DNA of 44,970 nt. Source: Escherichia phage vB_EcoP_C. The notes below the pieces were generated by a model. It was given only the letters and a program-made list of their open reading frames with translations. It was not told where the DNA came from and did no database searches. Positions 6,475-40,960 of the stretch are shown here, piece by piece (the stretch's first letter is position 1; each line of letters begins with the position of its first letter). Where the stretch lies: the sequence record NC_047807.1; one strand, written 5' to 3'. The position numbers were made by a program, and so were the translations under genes.

Positions 6475-6497
6475 TCTCTTCTATAGTGTCAGTAAAT
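6475..6497 (-). promoter_or_regulatory. SP6-type phage RNAP promoter (ATTTACTGACACTATAGAAGAGA)
   Basis: Member of 11-copy promoter family; intergenic between lysis genes and tailspike module. Confidence 0.7.
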
Positions 6498-8015: not shown

Positions 8016-8147
8016 TCTCTCTCCTATTATGTAAGTATAGTAAGGAAGTAAGGAATAGGGTGTACAGGAGTACACCCATACTAAGGAATACCTATATAAC
8101 CTAGGTTAACCTATATTATCCTTGTTATTTCTCTTATTATCTGGGCC

Positions 8148-8172
8148 TTCCTTCTATAGTGTCCGGTAATTA
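8148..8172 (-). promoter_or_regulatory. SP6-type phage RNAP promoter variant (AATTACCGGACACTATAGAAGGAAGG)
   Basis: Promoter family member overlapping the terminase stop codon; drives the paralogue pair and lysis genes. Confidence 0.6.
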
Positions 8173-8901
8173 ATAAGTCCTTGAAATCCTTGCAGAAAGT
8201 GTATTTCTGCTTGCCGATTTACTCCTGTAATTCTGACCGTATACTCTTTGCTGCATAGCCACGGAAGTGTTGGTTACTCTTCGCTCAGTGCCATAATCTC
8301 CATAGAGCATTGCCCTACGGAGGTGAGGTGTGTTCATAGCTTGGATATAATCGCGCATCTCCTGCGCTCTGAGGCGATTAATCCGTGTAACCTCGTCATA
8401 GTCTATCTGAGAAGTTAATTGCCGTATAGCGCCATACAGCGCGTCTAAGCGGTCATCGTGCCGGAGGCTGTTCTTCTCAATCGTGATGTTCGACATTTGA
8501 TTGAAAAGGCTGTATGACATGCGTAGTTCAAGCGGATAGTGCTGTACCGACTCAAAATCAGACTTGACCATCTCTGCGTTGAAGATGAGCCTGTGGGCCG
8601 CCATTAGTGGCTCTAGTGTTTCAATGATACGCAACTCTTTCTGTCCGGTGGCGTAATCTTCCTCCAGAGTCACAGGCCACTCTCGTTCAAAGTATGGCTT
8701 TATAACGGCCTCAAACGCGCCATGACCAAAGTTCTTTTCAATGAATACCTCTTTAACACCTGCCTGCTTTGCGGCCTGCACAATGCGATTCAGGGACGAT
8801 TCGCGGTATCCTCCCGGCACACCAAAGCACTGATACACATAAATGAATGTGCCGTGCAGGAAGACGATAGCCACACCCGTTTCATCCCCATTCTTACCTC
8901 C
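8170..8901 (-). CDS. Terminase large subunit, exon 2 (nuclease domain; GGKNGDETGVAIV onward)
   Basis: ORF-track frame 8170-8952 carries the terminase nuclease motif; sequence upstream of 8901 is intron-derived. Confidence 0.8.
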   Translation of the reverse strand, partial: GGKNGDETGVAIVFLHGTFIYVYQCFGVPGGYRESSLNRIVQAAKQAGVKEVFIEKNFGHGAFEAVIKPYFEREWPVTLEEDYATGQKELRIIETLEPLMAAHRLIFNAEMVKSDFESVQHYPLELRMSYSLFNQMSNITIEKNSLRHDDRLDALYGAIRQLTSQIDYDEVTRINRLRAQEMRDYIQAMNTPHLRRAMLYGDYGTERRVTNTSVAMQQRVYGQNYRSKSASRNTLSARISRTY

Positions 8902-9427
8902 CGGTTTGAACGTGACGTGCGAGCCAACCCTTGTGGTGTTTACGTAAACCATGTGCCACCTTACGCATATTCTGAGGTGTTAGGTTGTGCTCTTTACAGA
9001 AGTCAGTAATGCAAGTTACAAGAAACTCTTCACCATCTGGAGAAGTGAATATGTAATCTTTGCCAGTACCTTTGTTGTAAGGTGTCATGCCTTTCTTGAA
9101 CTCAGTGGCAACAGACAAGTGCTGTCCTTTCTTGATTTCAGTGGCAATACTTATGCGTTCACCTTTCTCGATGTTACCTGCTTTGCGATAACCACCTTTA
9201 CCCTTATTCCAACCCATGTTGTCATGTGGGCGTAGCTTCTCTTCTAGTGCATAACACTCTTCTTTGCTACCAGTGAATAAGATAACGTACTCGCGGCCAT
9301 CACAAAGACGGCCTGCACACTTGTGCTCTCTCATACGCTTCTTAATATCGGAGGTTACACCAATATAACCTTGCATTACATCAGTTTCACCAACAACACG
9401 AATATGATAAACTTTATGCTCTGTCAT
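8894..9427 (-). CDS. GIY-YIG homing endonuclease (intron-encoded), 177 aa
   Basis: GIY-YIG-like motif (VYHI...11 aa...YIGVT), conserved R/E/N positions, C-terminal NUMOD-like repeats; own GGGAG SD; lies inside the terminase intervening sequence. Confidence 0.8.
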   Translation of the reverse strand: MTEHKVYHIRVVGETDVMQGYIGVTSDIKKRMREHKCAGRLCDGREYVILFTGSKEECYALEEKLRPHDNMGWNKGKGGYRKAGNIEKGERISIATEIKKGQHLSVATEFKKGMTPYNKGTGKDYIFTSPDGEEFLVTCITDFCKEHNLTPQNMRKVAHGLRKHHKGWLARHVQTGR

Positions 9428-9647
9428 ATTTAACTCCCTTCAATTGTTACGTTAATTCGCTACTTTAACTTCTACTAGTCACCTAGTAGGTCGGACTATA
9501 TCTTAGGCTTGCGCCTCCCTCTGTTTCAGACCGCTTGGCCTTACAGTTAGTCTCTACACGTTCCTGTTATTGCAACAGGCTTCGCTCGGTATTGTCTCAG
9601 TGAGAGTTCCACCGAATTAAGAGGGTTTTACGCTGGCAGAGGTGTTT
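8902..9647 (-). mobile_element. Group I self-splicing intron (about 746 nt) in terminase large-subunit gene
   Basis: Splits terminase within YIDPAG|GGKNGDETG; P1 (exon GCUGGU with intron GCCAGC 9632-9637); P10 (intron CCUCU with exon-2 GGAGG); P7 core elements GACUA (9546-9557) and AAGAUAUAGUCC (9493-9504); P9-like hairpin with GUGA tetraloop. Confidence 0.75.
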
Positions 9648-10814
9648 ACCAGCGGGGTCAATGTACATAATTTTACGGGTGACAGCGCCCCATTCATACG
9701 GTCGGGCCACAGGGCGATACATAAAGTCTGTAGGCTTATTGCCATACTTCGGTGCATCGCCAATGATGTTAATAGAGTCGTTGCTCCATGTAGGCATCAC
9801 AGGGACTTCCTCTGTACCGAATGAAGTGAAGATGAGGTTGTTCAGGCGTAGCGGATAGCGGTCAGCATCCATCATGCGAGTGTTAAGCATAAACTGAAGC
9901 TGGAACTTAGCCGCACCCTGCGAGATTTCCTTCTCAATCAGCACATCATCATCATACATTTCAGGTGCACAAGGGGCACCACTATTGCCATCCAAGCCAT
10001 ACCCTGAGCGAAGTGCTGGGTTGTCCTTCATATCCTGCACAATCATAGGTGCAAGGAAGTCGCCATAGCATTGCTCCTGCTCCACTGAGGGATAACGTGC
10101 AGTCCAGATACGAACAGAGTAACCACGAGCAGGTAGGTTATTGTAGATAGAGTTTACGTTCTGAGGAGTACCAAGGTAGATAATATCACCAAACTGGTTA
10201 ATAGATTCAAACTCCTTGGTCAGTTCCTCAAGCAAGGCACGTCCTGCCGCTGTACGAGCATTCTGCATTGACTCAACGTCATCTGCTAGGATGATATCTG
10301 CACGCGCACCCTGCATACCTGCTTCGATTGAGTAACAAGACACAGAAGGCGACTTGTCACTGCCACGTAGGGTGTAATGAATCTCAAATGCCTTAACTGA
10401 GGCACGGTCCCCTGCGTAGATGTCCGGTAGCATAAACTCAAGAAAGTCTAGGCCACGGAAGATTTTAACTACCCAACCTGCGATTTCCTCTGCTCGCTTG
10501 GCGTTTTGGGATACAACCATGATACGCTTATGCGGTTCATGAATGATACGGAATACTGTATAGATTGCTGATAGTGTTGTCTTAGCGATACCACGAGGCG
10601 CTTCGATGAGGCGATACTTGTGTCCGTAGAATAGGAACTTCAAGATATCAGCCTGCATACGAATCAGATGAGGGTTGCCTGCAATTAAGTTATGAATAAC
10701 TGTGTCTGCAAAGAGAAGCAAACCTTCCGCTGTGTAAGGAAAGGTCTGCTGTAACTCCTGTAGCATCTCCCATCTGGCAAGAGCCTCCGCTTGTGATTCT
10801 CTTGCCTTAGCCAT
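9648..10814 (-). CDS. Terminase large subunit, exon 1 (ATPase domain)
   Basis: T7 gp19-like sequence; ATG at 10814 overlaps terminase-small stop (TGATG) with AAGGAGG SD; reading frame runs into intron after ...YIDPAG. Confidence 0.85.
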
Positions 10815-11113
10815 CAATCCTCCTTAGTGAATTGAATAATCTTGCCACTTGATGCCTCTCGGATAGCCTTGAGGCGCTTAGATAGCTTGGACTCCTCCTG
10901 CTGTGCAGCGGGTGTAGCGGTAATACCATTATCAAGAACCCACTTACACATAGCTCCAATGTCTTTACCAGAGACTAAATGCAGTGCTGCATCTGGGTCT
11001 TCTTCTATAGTGTCCAGTATTGCCTGTGCTTTCTTATTAAAGATTTTGGTAATAGCACCATGTAGAATGCCAACCTCGTCTTCCGTAGCTGCATGTTTAT
11101 TGTGTACGCTCAT
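10814..11113 (-). CDS. Terminase small subunit (T7 gp18-like), about 99 aa
   Basis: Position between holin and terminase large subunit; start moved to ATG at 11113 with GGAGGAGG SD. Confidence 0.65.
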   Translation of the reverse strand: MSVHNKHAATEDEVGILHGAITKIFNKKAQAILDTIEEDPDAALHLVSGKDIGAMCKWVLDNGITATPAAQQEESKLSKRLKAIREASSGKIIQFTKED

Positions 11114-28907: not shown

Positions 28908-28930
28908 TTGTTCTATAGTGTCAACTAAAT
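28908..28930 (-). promoter_or_regulatory. SP6-type phage RNAP promoter (ATTTAGTTGACACTATAGAACAA)
   Basis: Promoter family member overlapping the phosphoesterase stop codon. Confidence 0.7.
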
Positions 28931-32503: not shown

Positions 32504-32526
32504 CTCTTCTATAGTGTCCAGTAAAT
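32504..32526 (-). promoter_or_regulatory. SP6-type phage RNAP promoter (ATTTACTGGACACTATAGAAGAG)
   Basis: Promoter family member; intergenic. Confidence 0.75.
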
Positions 32527-34418: not shown

Positions 34419-34441
34419 TCCTTCTATAGTGTCCAGTAAAT
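34419..34441 (-). promoter_or_regulatory. SP6-type phage RNAP promoter (ATTTACTGGACACTATAGAAGGA)
   Basis: Promoter family member; intergenic downstream of DNA polymerase. Confidence 0.75.
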
Positions 34442-38054: not shown

Positions 38055-38738
38055 TTAGATATTCACGTATGTTTCTTCAGTAACGATAGGTAGGTACAGT
38101 AATTCTTCACCATTTAAGATGTGAAGACCTTTCAACCCTTGCTTACGAATAATGCCTTCTATAGTGTCGGCAAAATGCTTATTAATTACACGTCGTTGCG
38201 TACCTTGTTCTGTGATTGCATGGTCAACATCCATGATTCGCACAGGTACATTTGGATGCATCATGGCTTCTCCAATCTTTACCATAGCTTGTCCTGTGGA
38301 TTTACCCAATGCACGAGTATTAAACTGTGTAACACCTAATGCAGTGCCACATTGCTTAATCATCTCACTTTGAGTCTTACCAGTGATTACATTGCGACGC
38401 TCTTTCTTGAGTGTGGTTTTCTTTTCTGCCATGTACTCTGCTAGTGTTTGAGGACCAGCACCATAATAAAGAGGAGCTAGGAAATTCTTAAGCATCTGGC
38501 GAGCACATTTATCGCAAACCTCATCATGTATGCACTTACATTGATTGTTTATCTCTACAATCTTTTCAAGATATTTATGTGCTGTCTTCTTGTGGTAATA
38601 TTGCTTAACACCACTGCGATATTCTACATAATACAGGTTCTCACCTACAAAGGTTACAACACCACGGCAAAGATAGCGACTTGAAACTTTCTTGATGTTG
38701 CGTACAAAGTCACCTACATTCAACACTAAGTTATACAT
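38055..38738 (-). CDS. Hypothetical protein with Cys cluster (about 227 aa)
   Basis: ORF-track frame, start moved to ATG at 38738 (GGAG SD); CKCIHDEVCDKC cluster. Confidence 0.6.
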   Translation of the reverse strand: MYNLVLNVGDFVRNIKKVSSRYLCRGVVTFVGENLYYVEYRSGVKQYYHKKTAHKYLEKIVEINNQCKCIHDEVCDKCARQMLKNFLAPLYYGAGPQTLAEYMAEKKTTLKKERRNVITGKTQSEMIKQCGTALGVTQFNTRALGKSTGQAMVKIGEAMMHPNVPVRIMDVDHAITEQGTQRRVINKHFADTIEGIIRKQGLKGLHILNGEELLYLPIVTEETYVNI

Positions 38739-38972: not shown

Positions 38973-40960
38973 TAAAACTCCTGTTCATCGTCAAAGGTTG
39001 TCTCTTCTATAGTGTCCGGTAAATCAGGTACTTCTTGTTGCCTTGCTTCACCTGTATCAAATGACTTAGTACGGGCTTGTGGTTCTAGCAGTCGGCCCGT
39101 AGCGATGTCACCCTTAAGCATAATCTTAGTACCAGAGTAAATCCCTTGATCCCTATCTTTAACACAGGAAATATAGGTAGTAGTTCGCTCATCTAGTGTC
39201 TCTGCCCTCGTGTTCCTTTCGATGCCCAAGGCATATGATGCCCAAAAGCCGATAGCGCCTGAGCCTCGGAAGTCAGAAAGGATAACCTCGCCACCTTCTT
39301 CGTGTTGGGTACGGTTTGCCGGAGGACGTGTAAGGTGAGAGACAAGGAATATAGTAACTGGGTGTCGGTCTTTGATAGTACCAATCCGCTTGACGCATTC
39401 ATCAAGTGCACCAACCTTCCCACCAAAAGCACGCTCATCTAATTTAATCCCCGTTAAGTTATCAATGATGATATTAGAAATGCCCATAGCCTCAAACTCT
39501 AGGCAAGTTTGCTCTACCTTCTCCATAGAATAGTCGCCTTCTAGGTCAGCCACAAATAGCTTTCCTGTATCAGCCACATAATCAATGGCAGCGTTAGCTT
39601 CTTCCTCGGTGTAGTCGAACACCTCACGGTATCCGTCTTCTTTCGGGTCGTTGGTTGGCGGTAACTCAATACGCTTATCAATCCACTTGCCGATAAAAGC
39701 ACGGGACACCTTGACCATTGGGTCTTCTGTAGAAATGATGCCTACAGATTCACCGTGTTCTTCAATGAGGTGCTTAACCACTTCGCGAAGGAACTCAGTC
39801 TTACCTACACCAGAGCCTGCACCTACAATGATAAGCTGGTTCTTACGAATACCTAGCGTTACCTTGTTCAGCTTAGGCCAAGGCCATGATAACCCTTGCT
39901 CTGGACGTGCAGCCTTGAGCTTATCCCTTTGAGATGCGATAGATTTAATCTGGCTACCAAAGACTTCATCAGATGACTTGGCATTAAACCAAGCATCAAC
40001 AAACTCTTTAGCCTTGCCAGCCATCAATGCCTTGTTAGCATCTTTGCAACCAGAGGGATATTCGAGGATGTAGGATTTGCCAGGAAACAGGCGAGCAGCT
40101 TGTTGGTTCTGCTTCTGCCCTACCTCATCCCCATCAAAACCCCATATAATCTTCTTGAATTGGGCGATATGCTCACGGTTCTGCACTATCTCTTCAAGGC
40201 AAGACTCGCCTTTGTTGACAGACCATACATGGTATGGCTGGCCTTCCCACTTAGTACCCTTGGCAGAATCAAGGAGCATCTGCTGCGCTGCTAGTGCATC
40301 AAGTTCACCACCTACAATAAGCAAGCAATCCTTTCGTCTCCCCTTGTCTAACACGTGAGACAAAGTATTCATACCGAAAAGATCTTGCATACCAAAGAGT
40401 TTACCTAAATGACCAAACTTAAAATCTTTAGGTAATGTGCGACACTTAGCGCCTACTAGCTCACCTTTTTCGAAGCGTGGATAGTAATGCCGTGAGACTC
40501 TACCCTCTTCATCGTGCCCAACACGTACATCATACAATGCGCAAATGTCGCCGCGAATGTGTCTGGAAACAAGGTTCTTACGCTTAAGCGTGAGGAACCA
40601 TTCAACATCAAGTTTCCACTCTGCTTCTTGCTCTGCCCTTTCTTGTTCATTCATGACCTCCCAACGGTCTTTCATACGCATACCACCAAGTGCGATGGCG
40701 CGTAGCTTAGGGTCGCTAATCTTCCCTTCCTTCTCCATCTCTTTAAACTGAGAAGGTGTATATTTGATGTTTCCAGTGATAGGTAACTCTGTTATCTCGA
40801 TGCCACCTTCCGGCTTATGGTAGTAGGGTCTGCCATTATCATGGAAGTGACCACGGTTACAGTATCCTGCCCCGTCGTCAAAGATCATTAAATGATTGCC
40901 AGTAATATCATGTCCGTTCTTTTGGCAAGCAGGACACGGTACATTCTGAATAATAGCCAT
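38972..40960 (-). CDS. DNA primase/helicase (T7 gp4-like), 662 aa
   Basis: N-terminal Cys4 zinc motif (CPACQ...CNRGH), Walker A GAGSGVGKT; acidic C-terminus ...DDEQEF. Confidence 0.9.
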   Translation of the reverse strand: MAIIQNVPCPACQKNGHDITGNHLMIFDDGAGYCNRGHFHDNGRPYYHKPEGGIEITELPITGNIKYTPSQFKEMEKEGKISDPKLRAIALGGMRMKDRWEVMNEQERAEQEAEWKLDVEWFLTLKRKNLVSRHIRGDICALYDVRVGHDEEGRVSRHYYPRFEKGELVGAKCRTLPKDFKFGHLGKLFGMQDLFGMNTLSHVLDKGRRKDCLLIVGGELDALAAQQMLLDSAKGTKWEGQPYHVWSVNKGESCLEEIVQNREHIAQFKKIIWGFDGDEVGQKQNQQAARLFPGKSYILEYPSGCKDANKALMAGKAKEFVDAWFNAKSSDEVFGSQIKSIASQRDKLKAARPEQGLSWPWPKLNKVTLGIRKNQLIIVGAGSGVGKTEFLREVVKHLIEEHGESVGIISTEDPMVKVSRAFIGKWIDKRIELPPTNDPKEDGYREVFDYTEEEANAAIDYVADTGKLFVADLEGDYSMEKVEQTCLEFEAMGISNIIIDNLTGIKLDERAFGGKVGALDECVKRIGTIKDRHPVTIFLVSHLTRPPANRTQHEEGGEVILSDFRGSGAIGFWASYALGIERNTRAETLDERTTTYISCVKDRDQGIYSGTKIMLKGDIATGRLLEPQARTKSFDTGEARQQEVPDLPDTIEETTFDDEQEF
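39002..39024 (-). promoter_or_regulatory. SP6-type phage RNAP promoter (ATTTACCGGACACTATAGAAGAG) inside 3' end of helicase gene
   Basis: Promoter family member. Confidence 0.7.

Follow-up and report, generated by a model that had tools for sequence, protein, structure and literature searches.

An endonuclease reading frame that passes the 3′ splice site of a putative mobile group I intron in the terminase gene of SP6-like coliphages

The terminase large-subunit gene of Escherichia phage vB_EcoP_C very probably holds a mobile, sunY-like group I intron with an endonuclease ORF that has ‘crept’ beyond the intron's 3′ end, a reading drawn from the comparison of related alleles. The element is already known and annotated in phage K1E, and what seems undescribed is the crossing ORF as a trait of the family. 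The splice-site crossing is beyond chance, since it recurs in phD2B, in Vibrio phage VEN and in 10 metagenomic lineages, and the crossing state is old, stable and common to a whole clade of these introns.

The window is the whole 44,970-nt stretch of sequence record NC_047807.1. Its region 8100..10900, with genes on the minus strand, matches Escherichia phages vB_EcoP_D and vB_EcoP_R at 100% identity and K1E, a Vectrevirus (SP6-like Autographiviridae), at 99.1%. The K1E annotation divides the region into three genes: 40A and 40B, each called terminase large subunit, and between them 40.5, a putative homing endonuclease. Close relatives such as vB_EcoP_K encode the terminase as one continuous 632-aa ORF. 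The proposed intron falls in the codons for the conserved DPAG/GG motif (here and below a slash marks a splice site), where the Pfam RNase H-like nuclease domain starts. The features are as follows.

9648..10814, minus strand: terminase large subunit exon 1, with ATG at 10814; equals K1E CDS 40A; border by alignment with intronless vB_EcoP_K; 3′ end ..TAC ATT GAC CCC GCT GGT, encoding YIDPAG
9597..9599, minus strand: in-frame stop TGA, met by ribosomes that enter the intron from exon 1 after 16 codons of intron (ORF 9597..10817)
8902..9647, minus strand: group I intron, 746 nt, with a sunY-like layout of ribozyme and then endonuclease ORF as 3′ tail; placed by Rfam, intronless-allele alignment and covariation
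9451..9647, minus strand: ribozyme part, intron nt 1–197, with guide sequence and P1(3′ strand)-P3-P4-P5-P6/6a-P7-P7.1-P8-P9-P9.1
9631..9643, minus strand: internal guide sequence, ACCUCU at intron nt 5–10 (P10) and GCCAGCG at nt 11–17 (P1)
9434..9440, minus strand: AAGGGAG, Shine-Dalgarno sequence for the endonuclease, ending 6 nt before the ATG
8894..9427, minus strand: homing endonuclease ORF, ATG start, 177 codons plus stop; equals K1E gp40.5, 99.4% identical
8902..8902, minus strand: terminal G of the intron; 3′ splice site between 8902 and 8901
8896..8901, minus strand: P10 exon strand GGAGGU
8894..8896, minus strand: endonuclease stop TAA, exon 2 nt 6–8
8170..8901, minus strand: terminase large subunit exon 2, with the RNase H-like nuclease domain (Pfam PF22530, E 3e-33); border by alignment; 5′ end GGA GGT AAG AAT GGG GAT GAA.., encoding GGKNGDE..

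The intron borders come from an ungapped BLAST comparison with the intronless vB_EcoP_K allele, in which window positions 10900..9648 and 8901..8100 match contiguous vB_EcoP_K positions and leave an insertion of exactly 9647..8902, 746 nt. Exon 1 ends at 9648 (..GCTGGT) and exon 2 begins at 8901 (GGAGGTAAG..); the junction cannot be slid, because exon 1 ends in T and the intron in G, and the intron starts with A and exon 2 with G. Across the intron the sense strand reads ..GAC CCC GCT GGT / AAACACCUCUGCCAGCG ... GUUCAAACCG / GGA GGT AAG AAT GGG GAT GAA.., and removal of the intron yields an uninterrupted terminase ORF in the register of the intronless alleles, as judged against vB_EcoP_K. The junction peptide expected from the sequence for the spliced terminase is ..IDPAGGGKNGDE... 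The Rfam group I intron model RF00028 scores 61 bits in the window, against a gathering score of 50, and 55–89 bits in the homologous introns. The alignment to this model misplaces P1 into exon 1, and its coordinates (9472..9720) exceed the true 5′ splice site by 73 nt.

Helices P1, P3–P9, P7.1, P9.1 and P10 were placed by hand on the window, and were projected onto an alignment of 18 ORF-deleted homologous introns. Over the 62 modelled pairs, 95.6% of cells hold a standard pair, versus 37–42% when the partners are slid by 1–3 columns; changes on both sides occur in 36 of the 62 pairs, and 0 of 500 shuffles reached the observed values. The helix set, including the P3/P7 pseudoknot, is thus backed by compensatory changes across the 18 introns. 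In P1, the intron sequence GCCAGCG pairs with CGCUGGU of exon 1, with a U-G wobble at the 5′ splice site in 18/18, and exon position −4, third in an Ala codon, changes in step with the guide base it pairs with (U-A in 14 introns, G-C in 4). In P10, intron ACCUCU pairs with exon 2 nt 1–6, GGAGGU; over the 18 introns it is 94% paired and has one compensatory change, position 3 being U-A in 16, A-U in 1 and U-G in 1. One metagenomic contig (L062) matches an exon GGUGGU with a guide ACCACU, and by inspection a second (L063) sets UCCUCU opposite an exon GGAGGA. The terminal G is present in 18/18 aligned introns. We infer from these patterns a self-splicing group I intron.

Hand inspection and a column-by-column pairing scan identified no P9.0 or 3′ terminal domain partner for the last intron nucleotides. 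A candidate pairing between the base before the terminal G and the first J4/5 base is compatible in 17/18 introns; we do not claim it, because K1E-like introns are set apart from the others in the same way at several unrelated columns and the signal is possibly phylogenetic.

The endonuclease ORF begins 3′ of P9 and P9.1, the ribozyme taking up the first ~200 nt of the intron and the Shine-Dalgarno sequence and ORF the remaining ~525 nt. A sequence-only reading of this DNA had proposed that the ORF has a Shine-Dalgarno sequence of its own, which the AAGGGAG 6 nt before the ATG bears out; homologs keep AAGGAG or GGAGG at this place. No stop falls within the intron part of the ORF, and the frame closes at the first stop that exon 2 offers out of the terminase frame. 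Its 3′ end reads GTT CAA ACC G/GG AGG TAA, so that the codon after Thr ACC is GGG with G8902 as its first base, and the TAA is the out-of-frame product of the terminase codons GGT AAG (Gly-Lys). The same reading had placed the stop inside exon 2, within GGTAAG, and had let the ORF run 8 nt past the 3′ splice site; the TAA does lie there (8896..8894), and the figure is correct to the nucleotide with the TAA included. The terminal G and the P10 exon strand (read in the endonuclease frame as ..G/GG AGG U..) are inside the ORF, and the first base of the stop codon is shared with P10. The claim of the sequence-only reading that coding sequence and 3′ structural elements are superimposed is supported for these two elements. 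A larger 3′ structural domain was not found, and the overlap comprises only the terminal G, P10 and the final few nucleotides of the intron.

At the other end of the ORF, a hairpin between the start codon and the KVYHIR His codon, predicted for 5 of 6 homologs, was rejected: its fold does not exceed shuffled sequences in stability (z −0.9 to +0.7). At this putative hairpin phD2B has AUG changed to GUG alongside CAU to CAC. An internal phage promoter ahead of the ORF was likewise rejected: the phage promoter (TACYGGACACTATAGAAG; 9 minus-strand copies) has no match in the intron within 3 mismatches, and a resemblance of P9 to the SP6 promoter was discarded, being without counterpart in the homologs.

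We checked 12 further lineages at the DNA level, with endonucleases 54–76% identical to that of the window. In all 12 the ORF crosses the splice site, with its stop 8, 11, 19 or 38 nt into exon 2. The annotated coding sequences of phD2B (endonuclease 76% identical) and Vibrio phage VEN (54%) end at the same exon TAA, and the ORFs of all ten metagenomic contigs (L062–L071) pass the terminal G and stop in exon 2: at nt 6–8 (TAA or TAG) in six, at nt 9–11 in one, at nt 17–19 (the TGA of GAT GAA) in two and, in a different register, at nt 36–38 in one. Every intron-bearing copy examined has the intron after ..DPAG (GGT) and an exon 2 that begins GGNGG, and the homolog tails in most clusters are ..TGR, ..TGW, ..TGG, ..GRA, ..GRKERR, ..GRPECR or ..EGATVTRQLTQ. 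In a K1E-like IMG/VR allele, otherwise 99% identical, the second Gly codon is GGC for GGT; the TAA is gone and the frame stays open for another three codons, as far as a TGA 11 nt on. As this allele loses the TAA, that stop is no conserved signal. The codon usage of the exon therefore dictates the position of the stop, and splice-site and exon sequence dictate the tail residues. In sister lineages or more remote relatives the stop lies inside the intron, very near its 3′ end. One such lineage (L020) has UAG and then UACUG/GGAGGU, a stop 5 nt before the splice site, and differs from the crossing state by 4 nt including the stop; Pseudomonas phage PA28 has a TAA 18 nt before the splice site and Klebsiella phage Henu2_3 a TAG 3–6 nt before it.

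That endonuclease ORFs overlap ribozyme core elements is well described (PMC3984707, PMC3073962). Under the name ‘core creep’, Edgell, Chalamcharla and Belfort (2011) predicted variable, non-essential extensions, arising by stop-codon loss and varying in length among relatives (PMC3073962); the examples in Table 1 of that paper include none that crosses a splice site. An incomplete search of the literature turned up no account of intron ORFs that routinely extend over the 3′ splice site and end in the exon. We propose that the ORF lost its own stop, or never gained one, through a small indel or stop-codon loss near its 3′ end, and that ‘core creep’ carried it past the splice site, where it would borrow a stop from the exon. 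The crossing may be tolerated because the 2–12 exon-dictated tail residues would be dispensable; in an alignment of 23 sequences these residues show no conservation and follow the codon choice of the exon. A stop-terminated endonuclease message would exist only while exon 2 is attached, as in the precursor or an intron-exon 2 intermediate, and a ribosome finishing the ORF would cover the terminal G and P10; for both reasons endonuclease translation and exon ligation would be mutually exclusive on any one RNA.

Such exclusion could instead be the point of the arrangement. In this unlikely, but not negligible, case the crossing ORF would be a selected switch, in which splicing yields a non-stop endonuclease message whose product is tagged and degraded, and the ribosome blocks ligation; each late transcript would then be committed to either endonuclease synthesis or terminase mRNA. 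Persistence of the crossing across at least 13 lineages, with endonuclease identity down to about 54%, would suit a switch, as would the overlap of the stop and the last two sense codons with the terminal G and P10, and mistimed translation of I-TevI impairs splicing in T4 (cited in PMC3073962). Against it, the stop position and tail vary freely, the K1E-like allele lacks the TAA and is otherwise unchanged, sister lineages with an intronic stop 3–21 nt upstream also persist, and no paper linking intron-encoded ORFs with non-stop rescue was found in an incomplete literature search. On sequence alone, neutral creep and a selected arrangement cannot be separated, and an old, stable crossing fits either; the variable stop position and the persistent sister lineages with intronic stops argue for tolerance over design.

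Splicing itself is what a truly split gene would do without, and this we regard as highly improbable. Two terminase polypeptides, gp40A and gp40B, would then be made beside a free-standing endonuclease. GenBank does give two CDS; for the second, an ATG or GTG within the proposed intron is taken as the start, and the window has AAGGTGG just ahead of this ATG, at 8952. However, every copy exceeds the RF00028 threshold, exon bases covary with their P1 and P10 partners, and the insertion is exact to the nucleotide, its removal restoring the 632-aa ORF; moreover, the 40B start is not conserved, and in phD2B that frame is closed by a stop 24 nt before the 3′ splice site.

The endonuclease of this intron belongs to a group of 23 protein clusters found by database search, and the window protein was aligned with the 22 closest. 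Its Pfam GIY-YIG match (PF01541) reaches 21.0 bits, below the cut-off of 22.6, and a match to the NUMOD-like I-HmuI domain is also sub-threshold; 5 of 5 diverged members match both Pfam domains, below the GIY-YIG threshold and with a best E of 3.4e-5. Membership of the GIY-YIG family rests on the fold. An AlphaFold model built on the homolog alignment has the beta-beta-alpha-beta-alpha arrangement of the GIY-YIG fold and consists of two confident domains (pLDDT about 90) with a disordered linker between them. The residues Y7, Y21, G23, R31, H35, E62 and N74 are invariant in the 23 sequences; we take them to be the counterparts of the I-TevI catalytic residues, which in this family are the Tyr of GIY, the Tyr-x-Gly of YIG, Arg, Glu and Asn. 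In its fold the protein is thus an N-terminal GIY-YIG nuclease joined by a linker to a C-terminal, I-HmuI-type NUMOD-like DNA-binding module. A motif in the C-terminal helix gives repeated weak matches to TAL-effector repeats, each individually non-significant. Codon differences in the ORF are 24 synonymous and 8 nonsynonymous against Salmonella phage SE29, and 19 and 8 against Klebsiella phage Kpp-61, a pattern that indicates purifying selection on the endonuclease.

Among Vectrevirus with terminase exons 97–98% identical, the intron is present or absent at one exact site. Compared with SE29, Kpp-61 and an IMG/VR contig (L015), the ribozyme is 98–99.5% and the ORF 94–99% identical, yet the 600 nt of flanking exon on each side are only 75–78% identical. 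The window differs from vB_EcoP_K, its closest intronless relative, at 23 positions over 1200 nt of exon, and 10 of these are no more than 60 nt from the junction (binomial P 3e-5). Two further pairs, K1E and another, have 12/30 and 10/24 mismatches within this distance, and P over the three comparisons ranges from 1.5e-5 to 5e-5. The near-junction mismatches lie at −51, −45, −39, −33, −27, −24, −15, −3, +3 and +12, the eight upstream ones being multiples of 3 and at third codon positions. All intron-bearing alleles read GCT GGT/GGA, the bases that complete P1 and P10, whereas intronless alleles mostly have GCA or GCG and GGC or GGT. This clustering is consistent with, though not proof of, co-conversion around the junction, and the overall pattern is as would be expected for homing with short co-conversion tracts.

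The differences reach −51 on the upstream side against +12 on the downstream side, and the longer upstream tract would be in keeping with cleavage ahead of the insertion site. I-TevI, a characterised enzyme of this class, cuts 23 and 25 nt upstream of its insertion site (PMC2988022). The sequence-only reading had named the highly conserved coding sequence of intronless terminase alleles as the likely cleavage target; this is a candidate target, and the homing site must include the insertion site, while the cut itself may lie upstream of it. The endonuclease would bind the intronless DPAG/GGKNGDE-coding site through its I-HmuI-like module and cut nearby, perhaps upstream; double-strand-break repair would then copy in the intron together with exon tracts of about 50 nt on its upstream side and about 12 nt on its downstream side. 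That the element is instead a decaying remnant, immobile and only vertically inherited, its stop lost by degeneration, is very unlikely: stop loss is a typical early step of decay and the Pfam GIY-YIG score is below gathering, but the ORF is intact in all copies with synonymous to nonsynonymous changes at about 3:1 and invariant catalytic residues, the intron is nearly identical across genera whose exons are 75–78% identical, and divergence clusters round the junction as co-conversion predicts.

The K1E terminase intron (gp40A/gp40.5/gp40B; AM084415, NC_007637) is the same element at the same site, 99.9% identical over the intron. The database records give two terminase CDS with the 40B start inside the intron. 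A genome note on phD2B, with reference to K1E, describes an intron that carries a gene for a homing endonuclease (PMC4246154), and a survey of Bacillus introns has the K1E large-terminase intron among its group I matches (PMC2504315). In the literature on K1E and phD2B, searched incompletely, we found no mention of the endonuclease ORF crossing the 3′ splice site.

Three other phage introns resemble parts of this one. The T4 nrdD (sunY) intron with I-TevII shares the whole layout: a compact ribozyme, P9, a P9.1 hairpin, a Shine-Dalgarno sequence, a GIY-YIG ORF as 3′ tail and a remote 3′ splice site. Its core sequence is visibly similar to that of the window intron, but the host genes differ, and the I-TevII stop lies 21 nt before the 3′ splice site, with the T4 sites taken from intron length and a reading of P1. 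A homology of the endonuclease to I-TevII was considered and dropped, none being detectable (hhalign probability 0.5%). In the T4 td intron the 3′ end of the I-TevI ORF, also GIY-YIG, likewise lies over splicing elements; I-TevI overlaps P6a, P6.0 and P7 (20 nt) and stops inside the intron, whereas the window ORF exits the intron and uses an exon stop. I-HmuI, from the DNA polymerase intron of Bacillus phage SPO1 (PDB 1u3e), has an HNH nuclease that nicks one strand, in contrast to the GIY-YIG nuclease here. The GIY-YIG catalytic domain on an I-HmuI-type module is a case of domain shuffling.

The terminase of these phages is entered in databases as two ‘genes’, of which one has a false start within the intron, a split that gene callers can be expected to repeat. 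Taken together, the relatives form a natural series: in some the endonuclease stop precedes the splice site, by 21, 18 or 5 nt, and in others it follows, by 8, 11, 19 or 38 nt. The series allows ‘core creep’ and the interference between translation and splicing to be tested in a easily handled type of coliphage, SP6/K1E-like and with natural intronless partners. It bears on two standing questions about mobile introns: how a protein gene and a ribozyme share nucleotides, and how translation and self-splicing keep out of each other's way in bacteria.

In database records, the CDS '40B / terminase large subunit' opens inside the DPAG intron, the group I intron (9647..8902) of the large terminase gene, with an ATG in the window and a GTG in the near-identical phage K1E. 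Because this start codon is intronic, 17 false residues are added to the terminase annotation, and the correct annotation should be a single joined CDS, 10814..9648 + 8901..8170. At the 5' end of the same gene, which is elsewhere 97-99% identical to the intronless allele of the close relative vB_EcoP_K, a second patch holds 24 mismatches; on sequence comparison, this suggests an unrelated recombination mosaic. The window features considered here are as follows.

8902-8952, minus strand: start of the '40B' CDS, within the intron
9609 and 8903: candidate contact pair (columns 52 and 277 in A4, the alignment of 18 homologous introns), assessed for pair-compatibility
8990-9040: helix motif FCKEHNLTPQNMRKVA, endonuclease residues ~130-146
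369-386, 6478-6495 and 8151-8168, minus strand: SP6-type promoter-like sites 1-3
11002-11019, 28910-28927 and 32506-32523, minus strand: SP6-type promoter-like sites 4-6
34421-34438, 38156-38173 and 39004-39021, minus strand: SP6-type promoter-like sites 7-9

In 17 of the 18 introns, the first J4/5 base, a G or A, could pair with the C or U that precedes the intron's terminal G; the combinations are G-C, A-U and G-U. Such compatibility may mark a contact, either tertiary or P9.0-like, or may be a phylogenetic coincidence.

The helix motif of the intron-encoded GIY-YIG endonuclease is similar to the TAL-effector repeat LCQAHGLTPQQVVAIA, and against TALE structures the endonuclease-family profile reaches a summed E of about 1e-12. 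This likeness was set aside as a curiosity, given that the single repeats are each non-significant. The true structural match of the module is I-HmuI.

The nine SP6-type promoter-like sites in the window compare with about 0.08 expected by chance. All share the core GACACTATA, and in most the sequence is TACYGGACACTATAGAAG. None of the nine lies inside the terminase intron, and one is located immediately downstream of the terminase gene.

Further insertions are found in the terminase regions of related phages.

mutPK1A2 (L008), 391-821: free-standing HNH endonuclease gene and small ORF
Klebsiella phage Henu2_3, 1226-1471 and 2180-3010: terminase intron regions
Pseudomonas phage PA28, 2173-3013: terminase intron region
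L044 (IMGVR_UViG_3300000288_000022), 1905-2662: group I intron other than the DPAG one, 57.9 bits in Rfam

In some K1E-like phages, the genes for the small and large terminase subunits are separated by an inserted HNH endonuclease gene and a small ORF. The aligned region of PhiNW-E1 holds ~430 nt extra on top of the intron, and this phage may carry both intron and HNH-gene insert together.

Henu2_3 and PA28, from other Autographiviridae subfamilies, have a terminase intron after DPAGxG and before GDE, two codons 3' of the window site, with endonucleases 36% identical to that of the window. The Henu2_3 terminase contains an additional group I intron upstream, without an ORF, and is therefore annotated in three pieces.

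The K1E-like terminase gene of L044 (protein 98% identical) lacks the DPAG intron. Its own intron lies directly after codons ..SLRHDD, ~450 nt 3' of the DPAG site, and encodes an unrelated 172-aa ORF that stops ~10 nt short of the 3' border. Two distinct introns thus target separate conserved motifs within one nuclease domain.
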